Below, in pieces: positions 19 through 42,898 of a DNA stretch of 64,000 nucleotides (within the stretch, counting starts at the first letter, position 1; every line of letters begins with the position of its first letter). This DNA comes from an uncultured Eubacteriales bacterium (GTDB lineage Bacteria; Bacillota; Clostridia; Oscillospirales; CAG-382). A model generated the notes under the pieces. It had not been told where the DNA came from. It was given only the letters and a program-made list of their open reading frames with translations, and searched no databases. The translations under genes were made by a program, and so were the position numbers. The stretch covers positions 64,604 to 128,603 of the forward strand of contig CAKSOW010000003.1 of assembly GCA_934479825.1 (NCBI GenBank), written 5' to 3'.

Positions 19-813
19 CTACTCTTGACACGTTTTGCCCTCCGTCCGTCCGGCTTGCTCTTTCTTTTCCGCCATGCGGCTCATGCAAGCCTCCCAGAAT
101 GCGTCATAGCTTTCAAATTCCGGCTCGGACGAAAGAAACGCATTCATAGCCTTCTCGCTGTCGCCGCTGTGGTTCATCTGCACTAAGAAAACTTCGTTCA
201 ACGCCTCTTTCCGGCGCGGACAAAAGAGATAAAAATATTCATGGAACAGTTCTTCCGGCGGTTTCCTGCCGAACGCCTCATAGTATTTTTCGGCAAGGAC
301 AAACGCCTCGCTTTTTCTCCGTTCCTCACGGAACTCAAAAAACAGATCCAACGGCGCGACAAGTTTGGCAGGATTACCTGCGTATACGCCCGATTTTTTT
401 ATGCTGGTCGATACCACGCTTCCTGCGCCGATAATCACGTTGTCGCAGATAGAAACGCCGCAGAGAATCAAACTGTTCATGCCGACAAACACATTGTTTC
501 CGATCGAGACCGGCGCGGTATGTCCGATCACTCGGCCGGTAGAAGCGTTGTCCACATGCCAGCTTGCGTCATGCGTAAGCACCTTGACTCCGGCCGCAAG
601 GCCGACATTTTTTCCGATACTCAGCATAAACGGCACGGTATCGTCCAAAAACACGCTTTCCGGCGTGGGCATATATAAACTTTTATCGATTTTTGCGCCG
701 CGTGCGCATAACTCCTTTATGTAGCTTTGCGTGTCATACCGTTTGCCGAACATCAGATACTTGCGGAAATGGTTCAGTTTTTCGGCAAAGCCTTTCAATC
801 GGAAAAGCGACAT
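19..813 (-). CDS. Hexapeptide-repeat (left-handed beta-helix) acetyltransferase, probably polysaccharide O-acetyltransferase
   Basis: 264-aa ORF with LbH repeats (IGNNVFVGMNSLILCGVSICDNVIIGAGSVVSTSI...GNPAKLV). Sits last in the visible part of the minus-strand EPS cluster. Confidence 0.75.
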   Translation of the reverse strand: MSLFRLKGFAEKLNHFRKYLMFGKRYDTQSYIKELCARGAKIDKSLYMPTPESVFLDDTVPFMLSIGKNVGLAAGVKVLTHDASWHVDNASTGRVIGHTAPVSIGNNVFVGMNSLILCGVSICDNVIIGAGSVVSTSIKKSGVYAGNPAKLVAPLDLFFEFREERRKSEAFVLAEKYYEAFGRKPPEELFHEYFYLFCPRRKEALNEVFLVQMNHSGDSEKAMNAFLSSEPEFESYDAFWEACMSRMAEKKEQAGRTEGKTCQE

Positions 814-829
814 GCTTATATCCCCTTTT

Positions 830-1840
830 TTATTTTTTCAAAAAATGACACAATTTTAAAAAGTAAAACAGCGTTCGGATATGCCCGTTTTTCATAAACT
901 GATAGACTAGGCGCATTTTCGGTGTGATATTCTCAAAACGAGCCGCCGTCACATGGTTTTGCAATATCTGCCGTTTCATGTTCTTTTCGACGGTTTTCCG
1001 CGCGTCCGGCAACTCCGACGCCGTTGCCGCGTTGATGATTCCAAAGCATAAAAACGCCGTATACCGGTCGGTCTGCGCGGAAAAGTCCGCCTCTGGCGGA
1101 AACTGCATTTTTTCCAAAGCTTTCACACCCAAGGCCAATTGTTCAAACTGCACCGGGCGGAAAAGTCTGGAATCCGATCCCTGCCGCTCGCGGCACTCAT
1201 AAGCGCTTTTTCCGGAAACATATACGCTCTCGCACGCCGCATACACCTGCATAAGACAGGTCACGTCCTCGCCGAGCGAAATGCCGTCATCCACCGAAAG
1301 CTGCGGTTCATATAAGAGCGAACGCCGGATAACCTTAGCGCACAGATAGTAGAACGAATGGCGCATATCACGCGTCATGAGCATTTGCGGCCAGATAAGC
1401 TCGCAGACCTCTTTTCGGGCATAAAAGCCGTCTTGCAGCGGTTCATGAACAGTCCGTTTTCGGGTGGGATCCGCGTCCGTGAAAAAATCCACAGCGGAGG
1501 TGATTACATCCGGATGAAAGCTTTCGATGATCCCTTGGGCATTTTCAAGCATATCCGGCACAAGCCGGTCATCGCCGTCAAGACACACGACATATTCGCC
1601 CGAAGCTTGGCGGATTCCGGCTTTTCTGGCACTGACCAAACCGCCGTTTTCCTTGTGTATCACGGAAAACCGGCTGTACTTTGCCGCGTATTCGTCGCAG
1701 ATAGCAGCCGAACCGTCCGGCGACCCATCGTCCACCAAAATCGTTTCAAAATCCTGACAACTCTGCGCGGCAACGCTGTCCAGGCATTCTCTTAAATACG
1801 GTTCTACGTTATAGATCGGTATGATGACCGAAAACAGCAT
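830..1840 (-). CDS. Glycosyltransferase family 2
   Basis: The N-terminus MLFSVIIPIYNVEPYLRECLDSV...ILVDDGSPDGS and a later DGDD motif are typical of GT-A/GT2 enzymes. Confidence 0.85.
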   Translation of the reverse strand: MLFSVIIPIYNVEPYLRECLDSVAAQSCQDFETILVDDGSPDGSAAICDEYAAKYSRFSVIHKENGGLVSARKAGIRQASGEYVVCLDGDDRLVPDMLENAQGIIESFHPDVITSAVDFFTDADPTRKRTVHEPLQDGFYARKEVCELIWPQMLMTRDMRHSFYYLCAKVIRRSLLYEPQLSVDDGISLGEDVTCLMQVYAACESVYVSGKSAYECRERQGSDSRLFRPVQFEQLALGVKALEKMQFPPEADFSAQTDRYTAFLCFGIINAATASELPDARKTVEKNMKRQILQNHVTAARFENITPKMRLVYQFMKNGHIRTLFYFLKLCHFLKK

Positions 1841-1875
1841 GTTTTCCGCTCCTTTTTATGGATTAGCACCGCAAG

Positions 1876-2937
1876 TCACTGTGCCTTTTCGCGCATTCTC
1901 ACCAAAAGGTGCAGCAGCAGCGCGGCTTTATATTTCATACAAACAGCAAAAACGGCCTGTTTGGGAGGAAGTTTTCGGATATCGAATGCCCGTAAGGCCG
2001 CCGCAAGCGCCGGATCATGCAAAATCTTCCGGACATTCCGGTTGACTTCGGCCCGGCACTCAGGATGCGTTTTCAAGCGCATGAATTCCTGCGAAAGGGC
2101 AACTCTTGCATAAGCCTGTAACTGTCTTGCACAGTATGGCGCGAATTCTTTTGGGGGAATCTTCCGTTCCAGACGGCGCGCCGCCTCTTTCATCTGCTGT
2201 TTGGCTCTCTCAAAGCGGCCGCTTTGATAGGCCTTGGAAAAAGAGGACGCATTGCGGTAATAGTTATACAACGCTCCCGGAACGCCGACAGCGCGGTCAA
2301 TGCAGAACACAAAATCAATCAAAAACAGCATGTCCTCCGAAGCGACCACGCGTTCCGAAACAAACCGGATCCCGTTTTCTTCAATCACCGTCCGACGGTA
2401 GATGTTTTTCCAAACCGAATAGCTGTAACGCGTGTCCTCTTTTTCTTCGGGCAACGCCCCCACCATACCGAGCGCCAGACGTTTCAAGGCCTCCGGCGTC
2501 TCAAACACTTCCCGTGTCTCAAAACCGAATTTTTCGACATCCTCGCCCTCAAACACAATGCCGCCGACATGGTTGACGCCGGTCATCGCCATATCGGCGT
2601 CCGATCTTACCGCCTCGGTATACAGCGTTTCAAGCATATTCGGCGCAACAGTGTCGTCCGCGTCCACAAAGGAGATATATTCGCCTTTCGCAAGCGAAAG
2701 GCCGGCGTTTCGGGAAAGTCCGGCTCCCTCATTTTGCTTGTGGAGCACGCGGATGCGTTTATCCTCTCCGGCAAGCGCGTCGCAGAGCGAGCCTGACGAA
2801 TCGGTCGAACCGTCGTCGATCAAGAGGATCTCAATATCGGTAAGCGTCTGATGCCGCACCGAATCGACGCACTTCCTCAAAAAGTCCGCCGCGTTGTACA
2901 CCGGGATGATAACGCTGACCTTAATTTTTGCATTCAT
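1876..2937 (-). CDS. Glycosyltransferase family 2
   Basis: VSVIIPVYNAADFLRKCVDSV...LLIDDGSTDSS and FVDADD motifs. The stop overlaps the neighbouring gene, consistent with an operon. Confidence 0.85.
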   Translation of the reverse strand: MNAKIKVSVIIPVYNAADFLRKCVDSVRHQTLTDIEILLIDDGSTDSSGSLCDALAGEDKRIRVLHKQNEGAGLSRNAGLSLAKGEYISFVDADDTVAPNMLETLYTEAVRSDADMAMTGVNHVGGIVFEGEDVEKFGFETREVFETPEALKRLALGMVGALPEEKEDTRYSYSVWKNIYRRTVIEENGIRFVSERVVASEDMLFLIDFVFCIDRAVGVPGALYNYYRNASSFSKAYQSGRFERAKQQMKEAARRLERKIPPKEFAPYCARQLQAYARVALSQEFMRLKTHPECRAEVNRNVRKILHDPALAAALRAFDIRKLPPKQAVFAVCMKYKAALLLHLLVRMREKAQ

Positions 2938-4229
2938 GCGGACTCCTCCTCATAATTTTTTCCGAACAGACGAATCTGTTCTTCTTTCGACCGTCTGTCA
3001 AAGCCGTGTCCGATGATGAGCACGGCAAGCGTCGTATTGAATAAGTGGTAATTCATGGTATTATCGGTGCTGGAAACGATCAGGACGTACAGGATGATGG
3101 CAGAAGCGGCAATCGCGCCGTCGGTAAAGCCGTCGCGTCCGAAAAATTTTGTCCGGACAACCGTAAAGGCTGTCAGCCACAGAATAAAGCCCCAAAAGCC
3201 GAGGTTGATGAAGAAATCCAAAAAGTCGTTGTGAATGGCCTGAACACCGGCAACATTCAATCCGGAATTGAGCTTGAACGTCAGAAAGCCCATGCCGTTT
3301 CCGACAAATTTCGGTGAAAACTCGTAAAACGAATCAACCGATTCATATATCATAGCACGTCCGCTGGTGTCGATACCGGCCTCCTCCATTCTTTGGAAAA
3401 CGCCCGATTTGACAATGCCGATATAGGAAAGAAGCACCGCCACAGAAAGCGCCATGACAATCGAAATCAGCCTTGATGCCAGCTTTTCTTTACCGCGGCT
3501 CTTTAAAAAACGGCAAAGATAGCCAAACATAAGCGCCGCGCCCACGGCAAGAACCGCGATCCGCTTGAACGCCGCGACAAAGCAAAAGCCGGCAAGGCCG
3601 AAGCCGATCAGATACCCAAGCCCTTTTCGCGGAAACAACAGCATATACAATAAGTATGCCCCTAAGCAAAAGGCAAGCTCATGAATCTCCGCCTGTTTGA
3701 CGACATCTCCCGTCTCTCCGGCAAATGTAAGAACCAGCGTGATAAATTCCGAGACAAAGCTGCCGAGTCCGTTTCTCACGATAACCATGGCAATCATGAG
3801 CAGATTGGAGGTCAGGATCGCGCCGAGATTGAGCCAGATCGCCTTTTCGCCGAACAGGTACAAAAGCATGGCGGCGGCAAGAGCGGCATGAAACGAGTTC
3901 ATGAAGATGAAATAGTAGGAAAGTCCGCGCGTGATGACATGGGCGTCGCTCCGCTCGATGATCCACACAAGCATGGATGCCCCGAGCGTTACCAATAACG
4001 GCAACCCCATCACGCACGCCGACTTGAAGCCAACGACTGCACGCGGAAAATCCGGTTTGATCATGAAACAGACAAGTCCCGAAGCAATGATGATAAGACC
4101 GAACAAATGCCGGAACGTGATACTGAGTTTGAACGTCAGCGTCTGATCCAGAAAATAGTACATCATGACCGCAAGTGCGAAAAAATAGACCGTTATGATC
4201 TTTTCGGCAAGCTTGTTTCCGATATTCAC
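2934..4229 (-). CDS. Wzy-type O-antigen/EPS polymerase-like polytopic membrane protein
   Basis: 431-aa protein that is strongly hydrophobic, with about 10 or more predicted TM segments. Located between GT genes and a chain-length-determinant-like gene. The call rests on context and topology, not a strict motif. Confidence 0.55.
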   Translation of the reverse strand: MNIGNKLAEKIITVYFFALAVMMYYFLDQTLTFKLSITFRHLFGLIIIASGLVCFMIKPDFPRAVVGFKSACVMGLPLLVTLGASMLVWIIERSDAHVITRGLSYYFIFMNSFHAALAAAMLLYLFGEKAIWLNLGAILTSNLLMIAMVIVRNGLGSFVSEFITLVLTFAGETGDVVKQAEIHELAFCLGAYLLYMLLFPRKGLGYLIGFGLAGFCFVAAFKRIAVLAVGAALMFGYLCRFLKSRGKEKLASRLISIVMALSVAVLLSYIGIVKSGVFQRMEEAGIDTSGRAMIYESVDSFYEFSPKFVGNGMGFLTFKLNSGLNVAGVQAIHNDFLDFFINLGFWGFILWLTAFTVVRTKFFGRDGFTDGAIAASAIILYVLIVSSTDNTMNYHLFNTTLAVLIIGHGFDRRSKEEQIRLFGKNYEEESA

Positions 4230-6133
4230 ACGTTCGCCGCCTTTTCGGTGGGCTCCTCAGAGGGAGCAGCCTTTATGGTTGCCTTTGCCACGCGGATCTC
4301 TTTTTTCGACATGGCTTTGGTCAAGAGCGCCCGGATCTTACGGATTCCGTTGACGGAAGTTTCTGCAAGTCCCATGGTATATTCAATATCCGCTTCGGTA
4401 TATTTTTCACGCTGTTCAAGGAGCAATGTAATGCGTTTCAGGATGTGCTCGACCGTAATGTAGTCGGTGCGGTTTACAAAAATGACAAATTGTGCATTTC
4501 CGTTATAGACATAGAACGCGTCCAGCGTACCGAAAGCTTCTTTGATGATATCGGCAACAAAGCGGATCAAACCGTCTCCGCCATCGCGTCCGTACACATC
4601 GTTTAACGAAGTCTGATTGAGAATATGGAAGTTGACACAGACAATGCCGTCGTCCAAGATCTTGCGGTCATTGCTCTTCAAATAGTTGTCAAAAGCCACA
4701 CGGTTGGCAAAACCGGTCAGGTGGTCGGTATAGAACATGTACTCGATGATGTCGTTGACTCTTCCGAGAAGCGTTGCACCGAACGAGCAGACAAGGAGGA
4801 AGAACACCGCCGCAATTGCCGTATACAGTTTCACATCGACGCTTTCGCCGACTGCTACGCTCGACAGGGTCGAAATGTATTTGGCGCCCAAATACTCATT
4901 ATACTCGGCATTGGTCTGCTCGGCAAGATCATGGTACTTATTGAGTTTGTCCACCAGTGTCTTGATATCCTCATAGACTGCCGTGCGCAAGTCCTCATAA
5001 CCCGCTTCGCTGAGTTCCGCACAGGTTTTACCGGAATAGGCGCATAAGCCGCCGCAGGTACCTTTGCATTCATTGAAGGTATTGATCAAATATTGGTAAT
5101 AGGCAGACTGAATCACCGCGTATTCGCGCGTATCGGTATGGTCGCGCCAGCTGTATATGAGTTTATCGTAGGTTACGGTATGATCTGCGCCGTTCTGACT
5201 GCCGTATTCCTTTTCATAGACCTGATCGAGAATATACTCATGATTGATATTGGTATTGCCCGACTCACGCATTTTTACAACATAATCGTCAATAATTTGC
5301 AGAACGTCGTTTATTTTGCCGTCTTCGGAAATATTGGAAATGCTGTTCTGACTGATACGCTCGGTATAGTCGGAGACTAAGACGGCTTTGTTTTTGGTGA
5401 TCTGGTGGCCGAAGATGCGCGAATAGAGCTTGGCAACCTCGGTATCCTGCAAATAGTAAAATTCATTAGCAAGGTCGGCAAAGGAAAGACCGGTCGTGGT
5501 CGCACGGAAATAGAGATTGCCCGATGAACGCCGGTTGAGTGCCTGCAAGGTTTCACTTATATTGTCGTCAATCAGATCCATCATTTCGATATAATCATAC
5601 GATTCATCGTAGATATCGGAAAGCGAATTGACGGTAGAGCTGGAATTGAGATACTTTTCACCGAATTCCGAATAGTAAATATTGATGATCTCATCCAACA
5701 CGCGTCTGGCAAAACCCATGCCCTCACCTTTTTTCGCCACGAATGAAACGATATAGGTAGTCGGTTCTTCGGTATACTGCTCACCGTTATCTAAAACCGC
5801 CTGCTTTCTGGCCGCTTCATCCTCATCGATCACTTCGGTGATATTGACGCGCGAAAGCAAGGAATCAATCGAATAAATGCCTTCGTCAAGCCCCAGACTT
5901 GCCGTAACCTTGGTCATGATAGCCGACGATTTGATCTCATTGACATCAAGCGCCGTTCCGTCAGGCGCTTGACCGGATTTTGCCTCGTCATAATCGTAGT
6001 GAATAACGGTCGAAGCAACATAAGTCTGCGAAGAGGACAGCACAAAATAGACTGCCGCCGTTAACACAACGCAAAGTACGATAATAAACGGCAGGAATTT
6101 TTTGATATAGCGTGAAAGCTGAAATTTCTTCAT
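4226..6133 (-). CDS. Polysaccharide co-polymerase (Wzz/PCP)-like bitopic membrane protein fused to a C-terminal degenerate GGDEF domain
   Basis: N-terminal TM followed by a Wzz-like start (SSSQTYVASTVIHYDY), a roughly 400-aa extracytoplasmic region and a second TM (LYTAIAAVFFLLVCSFGATLLG). The cytoplasmic tail has GGDEF-fold landmarks HLTGFANRVAF and NDVYGRDGGDGLIRF, but YNGNAQF in place of RxGGDEF. Confidence 0.7.
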   Translation of the reverse strand: MKKFQLSRYIKKFLPFIIVLCVVLTAAVYFVLSSSQTYVASTVIHYDYDEAKSGQAPDGTALDVNEIKSSAIMTKVTASLGLDEGIYSIDSLLSRVNITEVIDEDEAARKQAVLDNGEQYTEEPTTYIVSFVAKKGEGMGFARRVLDEIINIYYSEFGEKYLNSSSTVNSLSDIYDESYDYIEMMDLIDDNISETLQALNRRSSGNLYFRATTTGLSFADLANEFYYLQDTEVAKLYSRIFGHQITKNKAVLVSDYTERISQNSISNISEDGKINDVLQIIDDYVVKMRESGNTNINHEYILDQVYEKEYGSQNGADHTVTYDKLIYSWRDHTDTREYAVIQSAYYQYLINTFNECKGTCGGLCAYSGKTCAELSEAGYEDLRTAVYEDIKTLVDKLNKYHDLAEQTNAEYNEYLGAKYISTLSSVAVGESVDVKLYTAIAAVFFLLVCSFGATLLGRVNDIIEYMFYTDHLTGFANRVAFDNYLKSNDRKILDDGIVCVNFHILNQTSLNDVYGRDGGDGLIRFVADIIKEAFGTLDAFYVYNGNAQFVIFVNRTDYITVEHILKRITLLLEQREKYTEADIEYTMGLAETSVNGIRKIRALLTKAMSKKEIRVAKATIKAAPSEEPTEKAANV

Positions 6134-6154
6134 ATGTTTATCTCCTTTGCCGCC

Positions 6155-7552
6155 TTAAAGAGTATAGTTCTTTTCGTCGTCCTCTAAAACCGAAGCCACA
6201 TCCCCGGTTTTGAGAAGTTCGCCGGCAATGCCGTACAAATACAGCGCAAAGAAGAACATAAAAACAAGCACCGCGCTGATAAGCGCTTTCTTTACAAACG
6301 TATTATCGGTTACGCTGACGCTGATACAATTATTCATGCGCGTTTCGGAATACTCTTGACTGATTCGTGCCGCACGCGTGGCATATTTGGCAAGCTCCTC
6401 CTCCACGCCGCGGATCATCTCATCAAGGGCGGCATTGTTTCCGCTTGATGCCGATGCGGAAAGATGTGAGATCAGGTCGTTGTTGGTGTTTATCTGCTTA
6501 TAATATTCTTCCGACTGTTTGCTGTACGACTGCGCCTCCAAAGAAAGCTCGTCGATTCCGACCTTAGTGCGTCCCATATAAAATTCATCCGAAGTGTCCC
6601 ATGTCGGAACAAGCACAACGCGCGTCATTTCTTCCGCATACATGTTCACAGCCGCATTTCGGGTGTCATACGAACTGCGCGCCCGTCTGGCATCGTAATC
6701 GAGCAGCGTGTTTTTGTAATTTAAGCGTTTGATGTATTCGGACGGATTCTTGGATATGCCGTTTTGCGTGACATAGGCCTTGATGTTGTTTTCGATCTGT
6801 TCTTCGTTTAAATTCTCCACTTTGGAGGCAATCGAATAGAACGTCTCGCCGTCCGAAGAAACAAAGCTGGAATTCCGGTTAGCCATGCCGTACATATAGT
6901 TGGCAATGGTCTGCGTTTGTTTTTGCAGATAGGTGATAATGTCGAGATAATCGGATTCATTGGCCTCGGCGTCTTTTTCCGGCGTGAAGTTCATCACCGA
7001 AAAATCGTCTGCATATTTTCCGATATAGAATTCCTTGAACGCGTCGCCCACCAACTGAACCACGTTTTTTGCATCAAGACCTGCCGTCTTTGCGCTTGCC
7101 GTATAGGTGATCCGGAATTCAGTGGAAATATGATAACCTTTTTCCGAAAGAGAGTTGCCTTGGACGGTCGGTTCGACTGTCAGGCACTTCTTTAAATCCT
7201 TTACCGTCACATCCGTAAAGCCGCCTTTTTCAATGGCGCGCGCAATGACGGCATTGTCCAGGATTTCAGCCATGTCAAAACGTGTGCCGTTGGAATTCTG
7301 CGCCTTGGAGGCTTCGGTGTAATTTAAGGAGACAATGGCCTGCTTGTAGTTGTTCTTGTTCAGATTGAAACCTAAGAAAACAGCCACGACAAACACAAAG
7401 GTAAGCACAAATGCCCCGGCCTTGACCTTTCGTTTGGCAAGCAAAAAGTTTTTGACTTTGGAAAGCGGAAAATGACGGGTCTTTATCGCAATTACAACAA
7501 CCGAAAAGGCGATAAGGACAACCACCGCAAGCATACACAGTTTGAGTAACAT
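6155..7552 (-). CDS. Second chain-length-determinant-like membrane protein (N- and C-terminal TM segments, large external domain)
   Basis: 465-aa ORF with TM helices at both ends flanking a roughly 350-aa hydrophilic domain. It sits next to the PCP-GGDEF gene. Assigned by topology and context only. Confidence 0.4.
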   Translation of the reverse strand: MLLKLCMLAVVVLIAFSVVVIAIKTRHFPLSKVKNFLLAKRKVKAGAFVLTFVFVVAVFLGFNLNKNNYKQAIVSLNYTEASKAQNSNGTRFDMAEILDNAVIARAIEKGGFTDVTVKDLKKCLTVEPTVQGNSLSEKGYHISTEFRITYTASAKTAGLDAKNVVQLVGDAFKEFYIGKYADDFSVMNFTPEKDAEANESDYLDIITYLQKQTQTIANYMYGMANRNSSFVSSDGETFYSIASKVENLNEEQIENNIKAYVTQNGISKNPSEYIKRLNYKNTLLDYDARRARSSYDTRNAAVNMYAEEMTRVVLVPTWDTSDEFYMGRTKVGIDELSLEAQSYSKQSEEYYKQINTNNDLISHLSASASSGNNAALDEMIRGVEEELAKYATRAARISQEYSETRMNNCISVSVTDNTFVKKALISAVLVFMFFFALYLYGIAGELLKTGDVASVLEDDEKNYTL

Positions 7553-7570: not shown

Positions 7571-8887
7571 TTAATAGCGATTGACGTCGATGATGACAAG
7601 TTCCGGCTGGTTGCCGATGCGTACCACCCCTTTATTGGAAAGGCCGCGGCTGACAATAAGCGTCTTTCCGGAAAGATCATATTTTCCGGCAATGTAGGTA
7701 TCGTCCGGCTTCTTTTCCGGAAACAATCCGTTTTTGCGCTCATATAAGCCGCCCAGATACGGCAGCCGCACAACACCACCGTGCGTATGTCCGCACAGCA
7801 CTAAATCCCCCCAATAGCCCTCTCCGAATGTTTCAAAAATATACGGTTCGTGGCAGAGGAGAACCTTTAAGTTTCCGGTATCTTCGTTTAAAAATCCGTC
7901 ATAGCTGTCCTCGCAGTAATTCCAGAATGCCGAAGGATTGGTGGTCAGCACGCCGTAGATATCCACCGTGTTTTCGCCGATTTGGGCGGAGGCTTTCTCG
8001 TTGAGAAGCACATGAACCCCGACCTTTTCCAAGGCCGCGCGGAAAGCGTCGTCGCTTTTTTTGAGTTTCTCCGGATCTCCGTCCGTCATGCTGTCAAGTT
8101 CTTCACGCGTCATGTGTGAAGCATACACGATATCGTCCTCGTTGTTGCCGTATGCACAGTATACCGGGGCAATTTCGGTAAGTTTGGCGTATAAGGAGAC
8201 AACATTGTCCACCGAATCGTGCTTATCCACCATATCGCCGGTCGTGACGATGATATCCGGTTTCAATACGGAAATGCGGCCGATCAACGTTTCGTTATCC
8301 TTGCCAAAGCTTGCGTCATGCAGATCGGAAAGCTGAATGATACGCAGATTTCCGCCTATCTTGCCGCTGCCGACCTGATAGAAATCCTCTTCAAAAGTCA
8401 GATTATCCAAATAATTCATGCCGACCAGCACCACAAGTCCTGCGGCACAGACCAGAATGCAAGCCAAAATTCCTGCCCAGATACGCTTGGAACGGCTTTT
8501 ATTTTTATATTCGGCAATTCTCACCTGTTCGATCTTGATTTCGGTCTCATAACCGATAGTGTCAAAAAAGCATTTGGTGAAAATGTCATAGTAGTTATCA
8601 TAAAAATCTGACAGATCATCGTTTCCGGTATAGCGGAAAACCACTAAATTCTTTTTGATCCGTACAATGGAAAAATTATTGAACCACTTATCCATTGCGT
8701 CCTCGCTGGTTCTTGTTTTCAGCGTTTCAAGCGTATTCTTGAACGCGTAATCAAGCGCTCGGGTGATATTATTGATTTTTTTCTTTTCGTTTCCCTGTTC
8801 GGGCGGTGTGAGATTCGGATTCAACACAAATCCCTCGCTTTCTTTCGGTATCGGCTGAACCGGTTCATTTCTCTTCGATAACATTCC
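7571..8887 (-). CDS. Membrane-anchored calcineurin-like metallophosphoesterase with a cytoplasmic DnaA-domain-I-like N-terminus
   Basis: Metallophosphoesterase motifs: LSDLHD, TGDMVD, GNNED, CHEP, GHTHGG. One TM (IWAGILACILVCAAGLVVLVGM). The ORF extends to 8989, but that would overlap the upstream GT4 gene by 125 nt. The start chosen here is the ATG at 8887, and it is uncertain. Confidence 0.7.
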   Translation of the reverse strand, partial: GMLSKRNEPVQPIPKESEGFVLNPNLTPPEQGNEKKKINNITRALDYAFKNTLETLKTRTSEDAMDKWFNNFSIVRIKKNLVVFRYTGNDDLSDFYDNYYDIFTKCFFDTIGYETEIKIEQVRIAEYKNKSRSKRIWAGILACILVCAAGLVVLVGMNYLDNLTFEEDFYQVGSGKIGGNLRIIQLSDLHDASFGKDNETLIGRISVLKPDIIVTTGDMVDKHDSVDNVVSLYAKLTEIAPVYCAYGNNEDDIVYASHMTREELDSMTDGDPEKLKKSDDAFRAALEKVGVHVLLNEKASAQIGENTVDIYGVLTTNPSAFWNYCEDSYDGFLNEDTGNLKVLLCHEPYIFETFGEGYWGDLVLCGHTHGGVVRLPYLGGLYERKNGLFPEKKPDDTYIAGKYDLSGKTLIVSRGLSNKGVVRIGNQPELVIIDVNRY

Positions 8888-9968
8888 GGTAGACTTTCTC
8901 GGTCTTTTCAACCACATTGTCATAGTTATAACGGGCGCAGATATAGGCACGCTGTTCGGCTGCCCGCGGATTTTCGTCCGGAGCGGCAAGCAGAGTTTCT
9001 AACTTTTGCGCAAGCGAATCAACTTTTCCGCTTTGAAAAACTTCGGCAAAATCCGCTGTCACGGAAGTGTTTTCCGGAATATCGCTGACAAGACATCTTG
9101 CGCCTGCGGACATGGCTTCCAACAGTGTGAGCGCCAAGCCTTCGATTTCGCTCGGCAGCACATACAGCGCACAATTTGCATACAGCTCGCATAAAAGGTT
9201 GCCGTCGGCAAAGCCCATAAACACGATGTTTGGATTCTTTTCTGCCAGATTTCTTATCTTCCCGCCGTATTCGTTTTCAGGCAGTTCCCCGGCAATGACC
9301 AGCTTTTTATCGGTTTTTATGTTTTTATATGCCTCAATCAAATAATGCAGACCCTTTTCGGGTACAATGCGCGCAAGATACAGAATATAATCGTTCTTTT
9401 TAAGACCAAAACGGTAGGTTATCTGATTGGCCGGCAACAGTTTTATCGGTACGATCGCATTTTCAACAAACACAGTATCGCGGCCATAGGTGGCTTTGAA
9501 ATACTGTCTGACGTTTTCCGAAAGCACGATCACTTCATCGGCATATTTGGCAATGATTCTTTCGCCGAGTTTCAGATACGCCGACGCGAAACGGTTCCAT
9601 TTGGCTCTCTGCCAATCCAATCCGTGCACCGTTGCAACAGTCTTTCTGCCAAACAGCTTTGCCACGGCAATCATGACCGACGGACCGAGCGCGTGAAAGT
9701 GGAGAACATCATAACGACGCCTTAACGCTGAAAACGTCGCCGTTACCGAAGCAACCATGGCATTGAGCGCCTGCTTGCGAAACGTAAAGGTGCGGTAAAC
9801 CTCCACGCCCTCCACGAAATAGTGATTCTTGTCCTGCAGTTTTCCCCGATTATAGACCGTCACTGCATGCCCTCTTTTGACAAGGCGCGTGGCCAGTTCA
9901 TATACGACCACTTCTATGCCGCCGGAACGGGACGGGAAATCCTTGTGCCCGATCATAGCGATTTTCAT
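8865..9968 (-). CDS. Glycosyltransferase family 4 (GT-B)
   Basis: MKIAMIGHKDFPSRSGGIEVVVYELA... and the C-terminal EGLALTLLEAMSAGARCLVSDIPEN (E-x7-E region) are typical of GT4. Confidence 0.85.
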   Translation of the reverse strand: MKIAMIGHKDFPSRSGGIEVVVYELATRLVKRGHAVTVYNRGKLQDKNHYFVEGVEVYRTFTFRKQALNAMVASVTATFSALRRRYDVLHFHALGPSVMIAVAKLFGRKTVATVHGLDWQRAKWNRFASAYLKLGERIIAKYADEVIVLSENVRQYFKATYGRDTVFVENAIVPIKLLPANQITYRFGLKKNDYILYLARIVPEKGLHYLIEAYKNIKTDKKLVIAGELPENEYGGKIRNLAEKNPNIVFMGFADGNLLCELYANCALYVLPSEIEGLALTLLEAMSAGARCLVSDIPENTSVTADFAEVFQSGKVDSLAQKLETLLAAPDENPRAAEQRAYICARYNYDNVVEKTEKVYRNVIEEK

Positions 9969-9993: not shown

Positions 9994-10686
9994 TTAGCGT
10001 CCCTCGCGTGTGATGACCACGAGCGCCGTTTTGAATAAAAGTTTCAAATCCGTGAGCATGGTTCGGTGCTCGATGTAGTCGATGTCCATTTCGACCCACT
10101 TGTCAAACGGGATATCGTTGCGGTCGTTTGCCGTCTGCCAATAGCAGGTTAGTCCCGGAGTCACCACAAGGCGAAGCTTCTGATAATCGTCATATTGGGC
10201 AACTTCTTCCGGAAGCGGCGGCCGCGGACCGACAAGGCTCATATCGCCCCTTATCACATTGATAAGCTGTAAAATCTCATCAATACTGGTCTGCTGTAAG
10301 AAACGTCCCACACGCGTGATACGCGGATCGTCCTTGATTTTGAACACCGGGCCGTCCATTTCATTCTGCGATTCCAGTTCTTTTCTTAACTGTTCGGCAT
10401 TGCAGACCATGGTGCGGAATTTATACATGGTAAAAGGCTTTCCGTGCCGTCCGACGCGTTTTTGGCGAAAGATCGGACTGCCGTGCGGATCGTCTAAAAA
10501 GATAAGTATGTAAATTAGTAAAAGAAACGGTGACAGAATCAATGCAACAAGAATGGAAACCGTTAAGTCAAACGCGCGCTTTTTCAGCCAATAATTCTTT
10601 TTCGGCGCTTTGAACAGCCGATCCATGCTCTCTTTCGTTTTTTCATCCACTTTGTTATAATCAATAAATACTTCCGCCCGATTCAT
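9994..10686 (-). CDS. Undecaprenyl-phosphate sugar phosphotransferase (small monotopic 'bacterial sugar transferase', priming enzyme)
   Basis: Motifs PIFRQKRVGRHGKPFTMYKFRTM, PRITRVGRFLQQTSIDEILQLINVIRGDMSLVGPRPPLPEE. It is the first gene after the promoter and leader. RBS AGGGAGG. Confidence 0.9.
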   Translation of the reverse strand: MNRAEVFIDYNKVDEKTKESMDRLFKAPKKNYWLKKRAFDLTVSILVALILSPFLLLIYILIFLDDPHGSPIFRQKRVGRHGKPFTMYKFRTMVCNAEQLRKELESQNEMDGPVFKIKDDPRITRVGRFLQQTSIDEILQLINVIRGDMSLVGPRPPLPEEVAQYDDYQKLRLVVTPGLTCYWQTANDRNDIPFDKWVEMDIDYIEHRTMLTDLKLLFKTALVVITREGR

Positions 10687-10700
10687 GGCTTTACCTCCCT

Positions 10701-10742
10701 AAAAAATAAAAAAGACTGACTGCACAAACCAGGCAGTCAGTC
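10701..10742 (-). terminator. Intrinsic terminator in the 5' leader of the EPS operon (riboswitch expression platform)
   Basis: Minus strand reads GACUGACUGC-CUGGUUUGU-GCAGUCAGUC followed by UUUUUUAUUUUUU. This lies directly upstream of the RBS of the sugar transferase gene. Confidence 0.8.
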
Positions 10743-10821
10743 GATCATTCCGTTTCCGGGTTAGACACTTAACTTTGCGTCCCCACTTTTCAATGGGTTT
10801 GCCAAAAAGACTATAAAACTG
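10734..10821 (-). ncRNA. c-di-GMP-I (GEMM-I) riboswitch aptamer
   Basis: Minus strand contains GGCAAACCCAUUGAAAAGUGGGGACGCAAAG: the GGCAAAC junction, a P2 hairpin capped by a GAAA tetraloop, and the ACGCAAAG motif. Next comes a second hairpin with a CUAA receptor-like bulge. A P1 pairing (CAGU..AGUC / GACU.ACUG) overlaps the terminator's 5' arm. Confidence 0.75.
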
Positions 10822-10877: not shown

Positions 10878-10906
10878 ATTATACATGAAATGACCCGATT
10901 TGTCAA
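10878..10906 (-). promoter_or_regulatory. Sigma-A promoter of the EPS operon
   Basis: Minus strand reads TTGACA, a 17-nt spacer, then TATAAT (both hexamers are exact consensus), about 190 nt upstream of the first ATG. Confidence 0.75.
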
Positions 10907-17684: not shown

Positions 17685-18110
17685 ATGGGAAACAACGAAA
17701 TTATTGAGCTTGCCAAGTCCCTTGGCGAAGCGTTGAAAAACTGCGAAGAATACAAGGCTTTCTGCGAAACACGCGATGAAATGCGGAAAAACGTCCTTTT
17801 AAAGGAACAATTAGACGAATTTAAGGTTCAGAAGAGCGTTTTGGAAGTGGAAAAGGAAAAGGGCGAACCGGACGAACACGTCGTGGACGTCCTTTCGGCA
17901 CGTCTTGAAGTCTTATATAAGCAGATCACGGAAAATCCGCAGATGAAAGCCTACACGAAAGCCGAAGAGGATTTAAACCTGTTAATGAATGCGGTCAATA
18001 TGACCATTTCCTCCTACATCGGTGCGGAAGAATACACCGCTGATGCCTCCGAGGACGAGGACGCAGAGGGCTGCACGCACAACTGCTCGACCTGCCGCGG
18101 CTGTCATTAA
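17685..18110 (+). CDS. YlbF/YmcA family regulatory protein with a Cys-rich C-terminal tail
   Basis: 141 aa, helical and Glu/Lys-rich, with a UPF0342-like pattern. The tail is CTHNCSTCRGCH. Position upstream of mutS, which I recall as typical for Clostridia. Confidence 0.65.
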   Translation: MGNNEIIELAKSLGEALKNCEEYKAFCETRDEMRKNVLLKEQLDEFKVQKSVLEVEKEKGEPDEHVVDVLSARLEVLYKQITENPQMKAYTKAEEDLNLLMNAVNMTISSYIGAEEYTADASEDEDAEGCTHNCSTCRGCH

Positions 18111-21002: not shown

Positions 21003-22379
21003 ATGACCAACGAGCTTGAAGTAAATGAGCTTATCGAACAGCTTGAAGAGCTGCTCGAACAAAAGAACTTCCGCGCCATGAAGCCGATTTTGGAGGAACT
21101 TCCGGCAGCGGACATTGCTGAGTTTTTGGAGGAACTGACGGTTGACCGCGCTATGCCGGTCTTCCGGTCATTGCCCAAGGAAACGGCTGTCGAGGTTTTC
21201 AGCTATTTTGAGCCGGAGACCCAGGAAAAATTCATCACTTCGATTACCGATGAAGAAATCGGGCGTATCGTCGAAGAACTAAGCGTAGACGACGCGGTGG
21301 ATATGTTGGAGGAACTGCCGGCAACCATCGTAAAAAAGGTATTAAAAAACGCAAGCGCCGCCACGCGCAAGACTATCAATCAGTTTTTGAACTACCCTGA
21401 GAATTCGGTCGGAAGCATTATGACTGCCGAATTTACCGACATCAAAGGGGACATGACTGTCGGAGACGCGATACGTTATCTGCGCAGTGTTTCCGACAAT
21501 AAAGAGACCATTTACACCTGTTACATCATCAGCCCATCCAGAGAGTTGGAGGGAGTGGTTGAACTTTGCGACATCCTTGCCTGCAAAGACGACAACACGC
21601 TCATTTCCGACATCATGGAAACCGGCGTAGTCAAGGCTGTCACCACCGAGGACAGAGAAGCGGCGGCCGGATTATTCTCAAAATACGATCTGAACACGTT
21701 GCCGGTGGTAGACACGGAAAACCGGTTAGTCGGCATTGTCACGGTTGACGATATCGTGGACGTTATCGAAGAAGAGGCGACCAAGGACATTGAGCAAATG
21801 GCCGCTATGGAACCGCTTGAAACGCCGTATTTAAAAACCGGTGTATTTACGATCGTGCGCAAGCGCATTGTATGGCTGCTCATCTTAATGGTTGCCGGAA
21901 CGATAACCGGCACGATTTTAGGAAAATTTGAAGAGGCCATTGCTGCAATTCCGTTGCTTGTCACGTTTATGCCGATGATTTTCGACACCGGCGGAAATTC
22001 CGGTTCGCAAGCCAGCACCACGGTCATCCGCGGTCTTACGACGGGTGAATTGGAATGCAGTGACGCGCCGAAGATTCTTTGGAAAGAGCTTCGTGTTTCG
22101 GTTGTGGTAGGCGTTTTATTTGCCGCCATCAATTTTTTGCGTGTCGTGCTTTTGACAAGCGATCCGGATAAGGTTTTAATTGCGCTTGTGGTTTCGCTTG
22201 CGATGTTATTCACCATTGTCATTGCGAAATCCTTAGGGTCGGTACTGCCGATTCTTGCCAAGAAGCTGAATTTTGACCCGGCTGTCATGGCGGCGCCCTT
22301 AATTACGACGCTTGTGGACGTATGTGCGATGCTTGTCTATTTTGGACTTGCCATCAAGTTACTGTCATTCCGGCTATAA
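21003..22379 (+). CDS. mgtE: Magnesium transporter MgtE
   Basis: MgtE N-domain, two CBS domains and the TM domain with the PMIFDTGGNSGSQAST signature. The ATG at 21003 is preceded by AAGGAAAGGA. Confidence 0.9.
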   Translation: MTNELEVNELIEQLEELLEQKNFRAMKPILEELPAADIAEFLEELTVDRAMPVFRSLPKETAVEVFSYFEPETQEKFITSITDEEIGRIVEELSVDDAVDMLEELPATIVKKVLKNASAATRKTINQFLNYPENSVGSIMTAEFTDIKGDMTVGDAIRYLRSVSDNKETIYTCYIISPSRELEGVVELCDILACKDDNTLISDIMETGVVKAVTTEDREAAAGLFSKYDLNTLPVVDTENRLVGIVTVDDIVDVIEEEATKDIEQMAAMEPLETPYLKTGVFTIVRKRIVWLLILMVAGTITGTILGKFEEAIAAIPLLVTFMPMIFDTGGNSGSQASTTVIRGLTTGELECSDAPKILWKELRVSVVVGVLFAAINFLRVVLLTSDPDKVLIALVVSLAMLFTIVIAKSLGSVLPILAKKLNFDPAVMAAPLITTLVDVCAMLVYFGLAIKLLSFRL

Positions 22380-23580: not shown

Positions 23581-26500
23581 TTACTGAAAACGAATCCAGT
23601 CGATCCAGAATTCACCCGGAACATTATTGAACGGGTCAATACGGAGTCCCGATATCGTTCCTGTCCAATCGGCATTGGACGAAAGGTCGAACGAATACTC
23701 AATATATTCGCCGTTTGAGGTCTGCTCTAACTCAGCACGGTAAGTACGTCCTTCGGAAAGGCCGCCTGCGCTTGATTGGAAGTAAACCACAAGCTGGAAT
23801 TCGCCCTTGTTCTCGTCGGTCTTTTCAGCCTGAATCTCATGTTTCATGCGAATTTTCAAGGTCTTATAACGGTTTGCGTCAATCGAAAGCACCGGAGAGG
23901 TGAGAGCCGGGTCATAACGACCGCCCCAGCCGCCTTTCTGATCCATGTCGTTTCCGTAGAAATTGCCGTCAACAACCGTTGCCGTCGCGTTTCCGAGCGT
24001 CCAACCCTCACCGTCGCCGGTAAGATTGAATTCCCACTCATTGGCCACACGGGAAGAAATCGCCTCATAGACTTCGTCGCTGAATGTGATAACGTTAAAC
24101 AGTTTCACGCCGTTTTCATCCGTCTTGGTTTCGGTCTTATAGCCGAACGTATCGACAATAAAGTGAAGCGGAACCATGGGAATGCCGTCTTCGAGATACG
24201 GTGCATAGTTCACCGAAACCGGTTCGCCGTTGACTGTGATCTTCTTGGAGCCCATGGTAAACACAATCTGCTTGCCATTTTTGGTGAGCGTCAGCTTCTT
24301 GTTGACTTTATCCCACGTGTACGCGCAAGAGAAACGATAGCCAATACCGGTATCCGGATAGAACGGAATCAGTCTATCGCCGTCCACGTCAACCGGAGAG
24401 TAATCAAATTTCACTTCTTCGCCGTTGAGAAGGAACTTTTCAGTCACCGCGTCGCCCAAGAACTGAACTTTTTCCGCACGGAACGAATTCTGAGAGGTAA
24501 TCGGGTCAATACGGAGCGCCGTAATCGTGCCGGTCCAGGTTGCAAGCGACGACATATTGATGACAACCGGGTTCATTCCCTCTTGGGTAATCTTCGCGGA
24601 AGCACCCTTGTCAGCCGTCCAGCTCTGGCTCTTATCCGTCTGGAAGTAGACCTCGACGCTGTTGCCGACCGGTCCGTCTACCCAAACCTTGAGCTGCTTG
24701 ACGTCTGCTGCCTTGAATTGCGGTGCAGTGCCCGGACGGTGGAGAATCGGGTCGGTATTGGTAGCCGTACCGACGATGATATCGCCCTCCGCTTCGGTGG
24801 TGCAGTTGCTGCCGTGCCAAAGCGTTTCGCCGTTTTCAGCAAACTTTTCTTCGTAAATGACTTTTGTGGCTTCCGGGGCCTTGTAGTATCCCTGCGGACG
24901 GATAATCTCGCGGTTTAACGGATACATATGTCCCAAACGCGACATTTGCAGTGTATCCGGTCTTTCATCGGTGTGATTCGGTTCTTTGGTGAATACCTTG
25001 CGGACAGTATCGAGATAACCAAAGCCGTTGAGGCCGGCCGGCATCATATACGTACCTTCGCCGTATTCGTTCCAGGTGGAAAGCATGACGAACTTCTTTT
25101 TCCATTCGTCGCCGTTTCCGGTGATATCATATTTGTCTAATGCCGAATCACGGATCCAGGTAAGAACCTGTTCCATGTTTTCGGTGGTAAGAAGCGGATA
25201 ACGGGTATAAGCCCAGGCAATGTTGTTGAAACCGGTGGAAACGGTCGGAACATTATGCATAATACCGTAGCCGTTCTTCTGCTGGTCAGCTATCTTTTCC
25301 TGGTTCCAGACTGCGCTGGACGCCGCATTGCCCCAGTTATAGGCATGAACCGCGTCGATGCCCATGTTGGCAAGCTTTTGAAGCTGTGCGGTATTGGCCG
25401 AACCCTCGCAAGCCATGATGATGATATCGTCATAGCCCATTTCCTTAACGCGCGAACGCAGGTAATCAAACGCTTCCTTGACGCCAGCCTCTGTGCCGCC
25501 GAAAGAATCCTTTAATTTGTCTGCGCCGAAAATAGACATGACCGGCTTGTTATCGATAATCATATAACGCGGATCCGAGAAGAAATACTCAACCCAGAAA
25601 TCGACAAAACGTCCCTTGAAGTCATCCAGATTTTCCGGTCTTGTGCCGTTGGCCGCTTCCCAAAGAAGGGCAAACTTGCCGTATTTTTCACTGTATTTTG
25701 CGTTCATGAAGCCCTCAAAGAGCGCTTTCGGCGTTGAGCCGTAGAAAGACTTAAAGGGCGCGTCGCTCGAATGGTACCAGCAGATAAGCTGGAAGTCCAC
25801 ACCGTGTTCCGCCATAAACTTGATTTCCCAGTCGGCGACTTCCGGCAGTCCTTCGTCATACCAGCCTAAAACCGGCTTGTTTTCGTCATACGGCGAAATG
25901 TTGTCCCAGCCCCAGTGGTGACCGTTTCTCCACAGGTTGCAGACATTGATACCGATAAAGTAATCGTCTGCGCCTGCCGGAACTTTCGGTTCAGAGGGAT
26001 AGTTATCATAATCGGGAATCTTCTCAACGATGATATCGTCCAGTTTCAGCGTCTTACCGCCGTTGTTTTCGGAGGCAATATACAAACCGTCAAGCGTAGA
26101 AGCGGCAGCCGCAAACGGAATATCCTTTGCAATGGTCTTACCGCTGACCTTGATGGTAGCTGTCTGCGTTGCCGTATCGGCATACAGACGAACCATATAC
26201 CACATGTAATTCGAGTAGCTGCGAAGTTCCTTGCCGTTGGCGTACATCTTGCCGTCCTTGGTAGTAAAGGAAACGATCGGCGTGCCGCCCGAGGTAAGAG
26301 CATACGTAAAGCCGTCTGCCATTTCCGGGTAAAGCAGGATGAGCTCCGTGCTGATATTCCCGCTCACTGCCTTAAAGGACTTGGACATGGAAGCCTTTCC
26401 GGTGTTGCCTTTAAAGACAAATTCGCCGCCGGATACTTCGACCGTCATATCGCCGGTCTGCTCCACTGTCCAAGAGTCGGGAATGACTTTGGTACGTGCG

Positions 26501-38001: not shown

Positions 38002-38733
38002 ATGTTTCCCGGAATCGGAACGGTCGCCAACGCGCTTGCCATTGTGGTCGGCGGCCTTATCGGTCTTATTTTAAACAAACGCCTGAAAAAGGAATTGAGC
38101 GACGCGCTGATCATCGCTCTCGGCGCCGCCATCGTCTTTATCGGTGCGTCGGGGACGCTTGCTGGCATGTTAAACGTGTCGGAGAACGGTTCGGGTGCGC
38201 TTGAAACAAAAAATGTGATGCTTCTCATTTTTTCCCTGGTCGGCGGCACGCTCATCGGTTCGTTTCTCGGCATCAAGCAGAAAACCGAGCGCCTTGGCGC
38301 ATACTTGAAAGAAAAGTCCGGCGCGAGCGGAGACACACGTTTTATCGACAGTTTTGTCTCGGCGTCGCTTACGGTGTGTATCGGTGCGATGGCGGTCATC
38401 GGCTCGATTGAGGACGGCATGAGCGGAAAACCGCAGACGCTGTTTGCTAAAGCCATTTTAGACGGACTGATCATCATGGTATTTGCGTCCGTCACCGGAA
38501 AGGGTGCGGTATTTTCTGCGCTTCCGGTCGCAGCCTTTCAAGGACTTATAACACTTGCGGCGGTGTTTTTCGCCGGATTTATTCCCGAACAGGCCATCAC
38601 CAACATGTCGTTTGTCGGCTCGGTGCTTGTCTTTTGCGTGGGCGTGAATCTGATGTTCGACAAAAAGATCAACGTCGCCGATATGCTGCCTGCCATTTTT
38701 CTCGCAATACCCTTTACCTATTTGCCGTTTTAG
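38002..38733 (+). CDS. DUF554 family membrane protein
   Basis: The start MFPGIGTVANALAIVVGGLIGL and a polytopic Gly-rich profile are typical of DUF554 (YdfK/YqgA-like). Confidence 0.75.
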   Translation: MFPGIGTVANALAIVVGGLIGLILNKRLKKELSDALIIALGAAIVFIGASGTLAGMLNVSENGSGALETKNVMLLIFSLVGGTLIGSFLGIKQKTERLGAYLKEKSGASGDTRFIDSFVSASLTVCIGAMAVIGSIEDGMSGKPQTLFAKAILDGLIIMVFASVTGKGAVFSALPVAAFQGLITLAAVFFAGFIPEQAITNMSFVGSVLVFCVGVNLMFDKKINVADMLPAIFLAIPFTYLPF

Positions 38734-38792
38734 CGGCGCATTTACCGTCAATTACATACAACCGACTATATCTGAAAGGAACAGAACCCGAT

Positions 38793-40472: not shown

Positions 40473-40486
40473 CGGGAGAACGCAAT

Positions 40487-42858: not shown

Positions 42859-42898
42859 TTTTTAAAATAACCGGCTCATCCGGCAAGGAGTGAACATT

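Follow-up and report, generated by a model that had tools for sequence, protein, structure and literature searches.

How can a Wzx/Wzy-dependent polysaccharide pathway be controlled if its polysaccharide co-polymerase (PCP) carries a degenerate GGDEF domain at the position of a bacterial tyrosine kinase (BY-kinase)? Gating of such pathways is generally attributed to cycles of a BY-kinase and a phosphatase. The question is raised by a gene for a 635-amino-acid (aa) protein, hereafter the target, in a 64,000-nucleotide (nt) stretch of DNA from an uncultured Eubacteriales bacterium of the GTDB lineage CAG-382 (assembly GCA_934479825.1, contig CAKSOW010000003.1, positions 64,604 to 128,603 of the forward strand); this whole stretch is called the window. 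An initial annotation, made from the sequence alone, had described the product as a PCP-like protein with a dead GGDEF tail, encoded in an exopolysaccharide (EPS) operon that begins with a cyclic di-GMP (c-di-GMP) riboswitch. The evidence given below makes us lean, by somewhat more than an even chance, towards the view that this tail serves a heteromeric PCP as its regulatory or oligomerisation module, within a Wzx/Wzy pathway that c-di-GMP induces. The coordinates of all features are collected in Table 1.

Two transmembrane (TM) helices enclose a large ectodomain in the target and both termini lie in the cytoplasm according to sequence and model, which is the topology of a PCP. In the full-length AlphaFold2 (AF2) model, built from 117 homologues (mean pLDDT 81.9), a helix at aa 7-34 corresponds to TM1 and leads into a small alpha/beta base; six long helices then extend as far as aa 419, and a strand occupies 420-430. 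A further helix, 434-473, holds TM2 and passes unbroken into a GGDEF fold at 478-616 (pLDDT 80-91). Since GGDEF matches swamped the Foldseek run with the full-length model, the ectodomain was modelled separately (pLDDT 81.6; strands 37-46, 96-100, 126-134 and 420-430; helices of up to 43 residues). PCPs, namely Wzc, WzzB and WzzE, accounted for 10 of the 11 best matches of this model in the PDB, with E values of 1.8e-5 to 3e-2 and probabilities of 0.93-1.0 (Wzc, 1.8e-5 to 1.2e-3; WzzB 6rbg, 2e-3), and KpsE and FepE appeared further down the list. Sequence and profile searches of the PDB with the ectodomain returned no PCP and only spurious coiled-coil matches to PI3K p85. Among diverse relatives, 17 of 62 matched the Pfam Wzz family at E<0.01 (best 1e-6); P0238, P0369 and P0371 have precomputed PF02706 matches, relatives score 21-24 bits for Wzz, and single proteins combine Wzz with GGDEF or EAL. 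The genomic partnership with Wzy and Wzx that is expected of a PCP is also found at the target loci. Judged on its predicted fold and remote homology, the target is a PCP-like protein of a new divergent subfamily, in agreement with the topology and fold that had been claimed for it.

The ectodomain also contains a cluster of four cysteines (aa 356-371, ECKGTCGGLCAYSGKTC) in the loop that joins its two longest helices. C356, G358, C364 and C371 are invariant or almost so in alignments A1 and A2, and several homologues have long low-complexity insertions rich in Ala, Glu and Pro directly after the "CGG" of the cluster. The cluster could be a metal or disulfide knot of an anaerobe's extracellular domain.

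The identity of the tail as a GGDEF fold is supported by sequence and structure together. Pfam GGDEF (PF00990) matched aa 468-607 with E=5.4e-11 and 43 bits (cut-off 23.8), TIGR00254 scored 35.7 bits and a dozen named cyclase models matched too. The family profile found DgcR (5.9e-14) and PleD (3.8e-8) in the PDB. Against solved GGDEF domains the target-normalised template-modelling (TM-) scores reached 0.6-0.7, and the top Foldseek neighbours were SiaD, PadC, DgcR and DgcB, which are cyclases with a dimeric helical coiled-coil stalk. Thus the modelled GGDEF fold proposed earlier stood up, and the landmarks named for it (HLTGFANRVAF, NDVYGRDGGDGLIRF and VYNGNAQF) are all present in the target. 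The last of these had been placed at nt 4487-4507, which covers YNGNAQF; the valine lies at 4508-4510, so that the interval was 3 nt short.

Conservation of the tail was measured on 117 close homologues and 74 diverse 50%-identity representatives. The hairpin that should carry the catalytic signature reads (V/I)-Y-N-G-x-x-(Q/S)-F across the family, with Y543 and N544 invariant in the close homologues and kept in 84% and 95% of the diverse representatives. The catalytic acidic residues of GG(D/E)EF are replaced by A/G/S and Q/S in the family (A547 and Q548 in the target), and H503 occupies the position of the metal-binding Asp. By alignment to PleD, the positions equivalent to its phosphate-binding K442 and R446 appear not to be conserved. 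The acidic catalytic residues and the metal-binding ones are therefore gone from the active site (A-site) of the tail, and the triphosphate-binding positions appear to be lost too. The position of the inhibitory site (I-site) is mostly GKxx in the close family (A1 and A2) and variable in the wider family. These results agree with the degenerate A-site and I-site that had been described. Other positions are strongly retained in the diverse representatives: the guanine-contacting N511 in 73% and D520 in 80%, with Asn in another 18% at the latter; D470, T473, N477 and R478 of the junction motif in 92%, 61%, 97% and 89%; and the family-specific R601 (88%) and D482 (91%). This pattern suggests that the tail is under selection with its coupling between stalk and domain kept, and that it may still recognise a guanine moiety.

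The fusion is widespread. More than 1117 clusters at 90% identity matched the whole target protein; the best 120 clusters listed all carry PF00990 and are nearly all full length, so that the survey of homologues recovered the same fusion that was seen in the window. Databases list these relatives simply as "GGDEF domain-containing protein" or "diguanylate cyclase". The ectodomain alone yielded 695 representatives at 50% identity, and among the 150 best matches listed the tail was present in 74 of 119 full-length proteins. Relatives are encoded in at least 286 GTDB species genomes. The 80 loci that were kept come almost all from metagenome-assembled genomes of gut or rumen Clostridia, with one cultured isolate, Lacrimispora sp. 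210928-DFI.3.58 (L010).

For synteny, the open reading frames (ORFs) of 82 loci were clustered with flanks of 10 kb. A core module emerged that consists of a Wzy_C polymerase adjoining the target gene (78 of 82 loci), PCP-GGDEF (81), a PCP paralogue (79) and a Metallophos protein (73); the direction of transcription runs from Metallophos through the paralogue and PCP-GGDEF to Wzy. A Wzx-like gene occurs in 62 and a Bac_transf gene in 61 of the loci, and GT4 and GT2 genes are also common. What these modules lack is the kinase. No cluster of Walker-A or BY-kinase proteins was found in the 80 homologous loci or in the distant loci L084-L086, no BY-kinase-like Walker-A protein in the 64-kb window, no CpsB, CpsD or LCP gene at the locus, and no BY-kinase or phosphatase in the 10 kb beyond the left window edge, where the same contig in public assemblies (L001) extends 10 kb further. 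The combination of BY-kinase, Tyr cluster and phosphatase that marks PCP-2a and PCP-2b is thus missing from the window, L001, the 80 related loci and L084-L086, and the absence of BY-kinase and CpsB noted for the window alone holds well past it.

Several relatives show how the C-terminal module can vary. In P0136 the gene is split and the GGDEF part forms the next ORF (149 aa). P0256, P0260, P0268 and the group P0364-P0372 are PCPs in which an EAL domain stands directly after TM2 and no GGDEF is present; P0256 combines Wzz and EAL in one protein, and the EAL tails of P0256 and P0260 have degenerate DDFGTG and ExxE motifs. Tail-less relatives were considered as ancestral PCPs coupled to a BY-kinase, an idea that was rejected: P0136 is the split gene, and the distant ones sit in the same kinase-free module.

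The partners of the target in this module were identified by profile comparison and by gene fusions. The neighbouring 465-aa protein had no Pfam match, and pairwise BLASTP against the target reached no better than E=2e-5, over a stretch of 80 aa. Its family profile aligned to the N-terminal profile of the target with a probability of 98.1% (hhalign, E=1.1e-13, 368 columns). It precedes and adjoins the target gene in 79 of 82 loci and is found in distant loci too, and in P0246 the paralogue and a target-type PCP are fused in gene order. By these profile and context data the 465-aa protein is a tail-less PCP paralogue of the target. In a similar manner, P0225 joins PCP-GGDEF and a C-terminal Metallophos domain in one chain (Wzz, GGDEF and Metallophos), and in L083 a GT4 enzyme is fused to Metallophos; since both fusions exist, it is suggested that the phosphoesterase domain lies on the cytoplasmic side, beside the tail. 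Candidate substrates of the metallophosphoesterase are undecaprenyl-diphosphate-linked glycan, a nucleotide or a phosphoprotein.

The link of the operon to c-di-GMP begins in its leader, which is ordered as promoter, aptamer, 10-bp GC-rich terminator, AGGGAGG and ATG. The riboswitch that had been reported at the operon start was confirmed by Rfam and lies 42 nt ahead of the first start codon. According to the aptamer structure line, the 5' arm of the terminator is the 3' strand of the aptamer. Because of this overlap, the leader is likely to act as a transcriptional ON switch, with the operon transcribed at high c-di-GMP: bound ligand would sequester the shared strand, the terminator would not form and the operon would be ON. 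A regex screen combined with Rfam was applied to the window and 20 related loci. Aptamers of class c-di-GMP-I were found ahead of module genes in the window, L003, L005, L006, L010, L015, L020 and L085, in most cases at the operon start; in L015 and L085 the aptamer stands within the cluster, immediately before the block of PCP genes, and that of L015 follows Bac_transf. The structurally unrelated class c-di-GMP-II was found at the operon start of L007 (5234-5317) and L019 (2120-2203). That homologous operons bear two distinct aptamer classes is a strong argument for c-di-GMP as their physiological inducer.

Two further observations concern the placement of these elements. The aptamer class is swapped on the same operon type, with c-di-GMP-II in L007 and L019 in place of c-di-GMP-I. 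L085 has two c-di-GMP-I riboswitches (6981-7057 and 17998-18074), one directly ahead of Wzy, PCP, PCP-EAL, Metallophos and a GGDEF-EAL protein and the other ahead of a surface protein with SLH domains.

A second link is a protein that combines TM segments, a weak GGDEF domain and an EAL domain and is encoded in the same operon in 59 of 82 loci. In 57-58 of its 58 copies, the sequence matched each of the six patterns of EAL catalytic motifs that were searched for, and the protein is probably an active phosphodiesterase, as far as motifs can tell. It closes or accompanies the operon; in L001 it lies beyond the left edge (21775-21908) and a representative is that of L017 (17581-18945). These features suggest that a c-di-GMP-induced operon may contain a built-in c-di-GMP phosphodiesterase, and so feedback. 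A derivation of the N-domain of this protein as a copy of the PCP tail was rejected, as no significant relation was detected between the two (none by hmmsearch; hhalign E=0.23). In L083, the locus with split PCP and GGDEF, the EPS genes of the module are immediately preceded by genes for two dedicated enzymes of c-di-GMP turnover (671-6164), one a PAS-GGDEF-GGDEF-EAL protein of 1444 aa and the other of PAS-GGDEF type. The setting formed by the EAL protein, the EAL-tailed sisters, the paralogue and the phosphoesterase gives a c-di-GMP link at the level of proteins independent support, stronger than that from the tail sequence.

Taken together, a mechanism can be proposed in which the two paralogues would assemble into a heteromeric PCP ring and act together with Wzy. 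The GGDEF-like tails would lie under this ring, at the position of the Wzc kinase domains, as a regulatory or oligomerisation module, and would tie polymerisation to the c-di-GMP system. They might do so by binding a guanine ligand that lacks triphosphate-Mg, namely c-di-GMP or pGpG, via the retained Asn/Asp and the new YN motif, or by docking the EAL protein of the operon. A bolder version, to which we give a minor share of belief, is that the dead-GGDEF ring of the two-paralogue PCP is a second-messenger switch that replaces the BY-kinase ring of Wzc, with c-di-GMP or pGpG in a new pocket outside the I-site. Such a pocket would be formed by the retained Asn/Asp and the invariant YN, possibly bridging two tails; c-di-GMP or pGpG is favoured over GTP because the ligands of triphosphate-Mg are lost. 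The EAL-tailed sister PCPs would then represent a different way of fulfilling this role.

Several points weigh against a regulatory PCP module of this kind. The PCP assignment rests on fold and remote homology, because Pfam Wzz (PF02706) is sub-threshold on the target (12.8 bits, E=0.16, cut-off 25.5). This sub-threshold match does fall at the expected site, aa 11-52; thus, of the two Pfam searches proposed in the initial annotation, that for GGDEF succeeded and that for Wzz did not. The TM-scores of the ectodomain to PCPs are low (0.2-0.3), for which reason it is regarded as a divergent member. Classical PCPs have a proline-rich motif adjoining TM2 that resembles PX2PX4SPKX11GXMXG. This motif is absent from the target, which has no Pro from aa 125 to TM2; P15, P57 and P124 are the only conserved prolines of its family. 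Concerning the tail, the phosphate- and metal-binding positions of the A-site are presumably substituted by alignment to PleD, which argues against GTP binding. The RxxD of the I-site is absent from the target, the 117 close and the 74 diverse homologues, and no Arg is conserved there. To our knowledge, every characterised degenerate-GGDEF receptor of c-di-GMP (PelD, YdaK, PssE and PopA) uses the RxxD I-site. With no RxxD in the family, ligand binding by the tail has no known motif in its support. Since certain relatives lack a tail or end in an acidic disordered one, the PCP core can work without the GGDEF module. No riboswitch was found in 11 of the 20 scanned loci, some operon starts being beyond the 10-kb flank. 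The chief risk to the proposal is a tail that persists as a structural relic and binds no ligand.

That risk corresponds to a scaffold in which a relic GGDEF fold would serve dimerisation or oligomerisation and docking in the PCP ring and c-di-GMP control would be transcriptional only, via the riboswitch. It is the less expected outcome in our judgement, though one to be taken seriously. Both known nucleotide sites are degenerate, the tail-less and acidic-tail relatives sit in the same kinase-free module of Wzy, PCP, PCP and Metallophos, otherwise identical, and the conserved DxLT/NR junction with the continuous TM2-stalk helix would fit mechanical rather than chemical coupling. Against a mere scaffold stand the strong conservation of N511 and D520 at former ligand contacts, the new invariant YN, and sister proteins that swap the tail for EAL, a c-di-GMP-binding fold. 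A signal in the opposite direction seems decidedly unlikely. Here the ectodomain would sense the status of polymer or wall, the tail would relay it to the co-operonic EAL protein as in a trigger-phosphodiesterase pair, and EPS status would feed back on the level of c-di-GMP and, through it, on the riboswitch. The conservation of the EAL protein, with its six motif patterns and weak GGDEF-like domain, in 59 of 82 loci and the stalk-GGDEF geometry shared with the signal-regulated cyclases SiaD, PadC, DgcR and DgcB are in line with such a relay, but the tail shows no specific relation to the N-domain of that protein and the tight coupling to Wzy fits a biosynthetic role better.

Two familiar modes of action are rejected on the motifs. 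In the mode of PelD, YdaK and PssE, c-di-GMP intercalated at the I-site would allosterically activate synthesis, and a tail that is membrane-anchored, degenerate and predicted to belong to a c-di-GMP-responsive EPS operon would suit it. GTLD or GKxx in place of RxxD across a family without a conserved Arg, and the absence of PelD from the PDB matches of the family profile, leave this reading very improbable. YdaK and PelD, which the initial annotation had cited as precedents, stand as analogies only and not as members of the same class, because RxxD is absent across the whole target family. Least credible of all is an active unorthodox diguanylate cyclase that supplies local c-di-GMP to the EPS machine: the database names of the relatives and the retained guanine-binding N and D speak for it, but YNGNAQF, with A547 and Q548 in place of the acidic pair, H503 at the metal Asp and, presumably, the unconserved K442/R446 positions of PleD speak against it. 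A c-di-GMP-linked regulatory or oligomerisation module in a heteromeric PCP remains our preferred reading of the tail.

Part of this belongs to known kinds, namely PCPs, degenerate GGDEF domains in EPS machines and c-di-GMP riboswitches. What appears to be new is a degenerate GGDEF or EAL module at the BY-kinase position of a PCP, the pairing of PCP paralogues, and a Wzx/Wzy pathway in which, over the roughly 85 loci examined, the surroundings of the PCP gene (about 10 kb) hold neither a BY-kinase nor a phosphatase gene. In searches of the literature neither a fusion of PCP with GGDEF or EAL nor an operon of this type came up, in line with the remark of the initial annotation that its precedents YdaK and PelD are not known as PCP fusions. 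The EPS machines under post-translational c-di-GMP control that we know of are all synthase-dependent: cellulose, alginate, Pel, PNAG, Listeria Pss and B. subtilis Yda. If the bolder version of the proposal is true, c-di-GMP would here be seen for the first time to exert direct allosteric control over Wzx/Wzy-dependent polymerisation. The family offers a concrete candidate for the regulation of chain polymerisation in the absence of tyrosine phosphorylation, and possibly a new ligand site on the GGDEF fold. The large group of gut Clostridia described here combines BY-kinase-free Wzx/Wzy loci, paired PCP paralogues, dead-GGDEF or EAL tails and riboswitch-controlled operons. A correction of annotation also follows, as members of the family are counted as cyclases in genomes.

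Table 1. Features of the target gene and its operon, in nt of the window.
Feature	Position	Strand	Basis
PCP-like/dead-GGDEF fusion gene, 635 aa	4226..6133	-	ORF with ATG start
TM1 hydrophobic core, aa 13-32, after K/R-rich cytoplasmic N-terminus	6038..6097	-	sequence
Extracytoplasmic PCP-like domain, aa 35-433, alpha/beta base and long helical bundle	4835..6031	-	model, Foldseek
TM2, aa 436-457, unbroken helix onward to aa 473	4763..4828	-	AF2 helix 434-473
Cytoplasmic GGDEF-fold tail, aa 466-616	4286..4738	-	Pfam, PDB profile matches, Foldseek
Four-Cys cluster C356-x3-C360-x3-C364-x6-C371, ectodomain loop	5021..5068	-	alignments A1/A2
V542-YNGNAQ-F549 in place of RxGG(D/E)EF	4487..4510	-	alignment
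I-site position, G535-T-L-D538, no Arg	4520..4531	-	HMMER alignment to RKSD of DgcR
Guanine-contact pair N511...G519-D520, canonical "IND...GD" positions	4574..4603	-	HMMER alignment to DgcR
Retained DxLT...NR junction motif, D470, T473, N477, R478	4700..4726	-	
Sigma-70-type promoter TTGACA-17-TATAAT, 12/12 matches	10878..10906	-	sequence
c-di-GMP-I riboswitch aptamer	10729..10813	-	RF01051, 67.5 bits (gathering score 35)
Intrinsic terminator (GACTGACTGC / GCAGTCAGTC and T-run)	10701..10742	-	sequence, minimum-free-energy fold z=-3.4
Bac_transf, priming sugar-phosphate transferase encoded by the operon's first gene	9994..10686	-	Pfam 1.8e-64
GT4 glycosyltransferase	8865..9968	-	Pfam
Membrane-anchored calcineurin-like metallophosphoesterase	7571..8824	-	Pfam Metallophos 9.1e-12
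Tail-less PCP-like paralogue, 465 aa, formerly "unknown"	6155..7552	-	hhalign
Wzy-type polymerase (Wzy_C)	2934..4229	-	Pfam 4.6e-10
GT2, GT2, hexapeptide acyltransferase (downstream operon genes in the window)	19..2937	-	Pfam

Within the operon, an AAGGAG Shine-Dalgarno sequence lies 7 nt 5' of the start of the target gene, and the GTG start of Wzy_C overlaps the stop of the target by 4 nt (GTGTGA), an arrangement by which the target is predicted to be translationally coupled to Wzy. Past the left edge of the window the operon continues in L001 with a 510-aa Wzx-like protein, a GT2, Acyl_transf_3, a carrier protein, an AMP-binding enzyme and the EAL protein. Acyl_transf_3, the PP-binding carrier and the AMP-binding enzyme (L001, 18670-21488) follow the glycosyltransferases as a DltA/DltC-like set, which suggests that the polymer is acylated or aminoacylated. 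The remainder of the window is housekeeping (MutS, MgtE, FtsK, GlnRS and ClpB). Unrelated to the operon is a 1560-aa cell-wall-anchored protein on the minus strand (23581-28263) with SLH repeats, a WbsX-type glycosyltransferase/glycosidase-like domain and Cu_amine_oxidN1. Two class-Ic aminoacyl-tRNA synthetases of 612 aa (Anticodon_2) and 556 aa (GlnRS type) are encoded on the plus strand (38634-44560), with a 595-aa right-handed beta-helix protein between them.

Among known systems, one close in design is Wzc, the PCP-2a of E. coli K30 (PDB 7nhr, 7nib and 9r68). As in the target, its TM1 and TM2 enclose a large helical ectodomain, and a globular domain in the cytoplasm is fused directly to TM2. 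Wzc gave the best structural match to the target's ectodomain, and it works with Wzy/Wzx in the polymerisation of repeat units. In the target, however, the tail is a dead GGDEF fold rather than a Walker-A BY-kinase with a Tyr cluster, and there is no phosphatase; the host is monoderm and has no Wza partner, sequence similarity is undetectable and the Pro-rich motif is missing. PCP-2b proteins have short ectodomains and are roughly 230 aa long in total. The pairs CpsC/CpsD and CapA/CapB, in which a PCP-2b acts with a separate BY-kinase, resemble the target system in being Gram-positive Wzx/Wzy loci with a two-TM PCP beside the polymerase, whereas the ectodomain of the target has about 400 aa and its partner is a second PCP paralogue instead of a kinase.

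On the side of c-di-GMP, PelD of P. aeruginosa, YdaK of B. subtilis and PssE of L. monocytogenes likewise place a membrane-anchored dead GGDEF domain in a c-di-GMP-dependent EPS operon. Their RxxD is intact and their systems are synthase-dependent, whereas the target family has no I-site, is fused to a PCP and is Wzx/Wzy-dependent. The stalk-GGDEF cyclases DgcR (6zxm), DgcB (6ttr), SiaD (7e6g) and PleD share the helix that runs into the DxLT/NR junction and the guanine-contacting Asn/Asp; they differ in their intact GG(D/E)EF and, usually, RxxD, where the target has YNGNAQF and no RxxD. LapD and FimX, the degenerate EAL receptors, are not PCPs, and the target carries a degenerate GGDEF rather than an EAL domain. 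The sisters P0256, P0260, P0366 and others do carry an EAL domain after TM2, and the degenerate motifs in P0256 and P0260 are as would be expected of an EAL domain that binds c-di-GMP and does not hydrolyse it.

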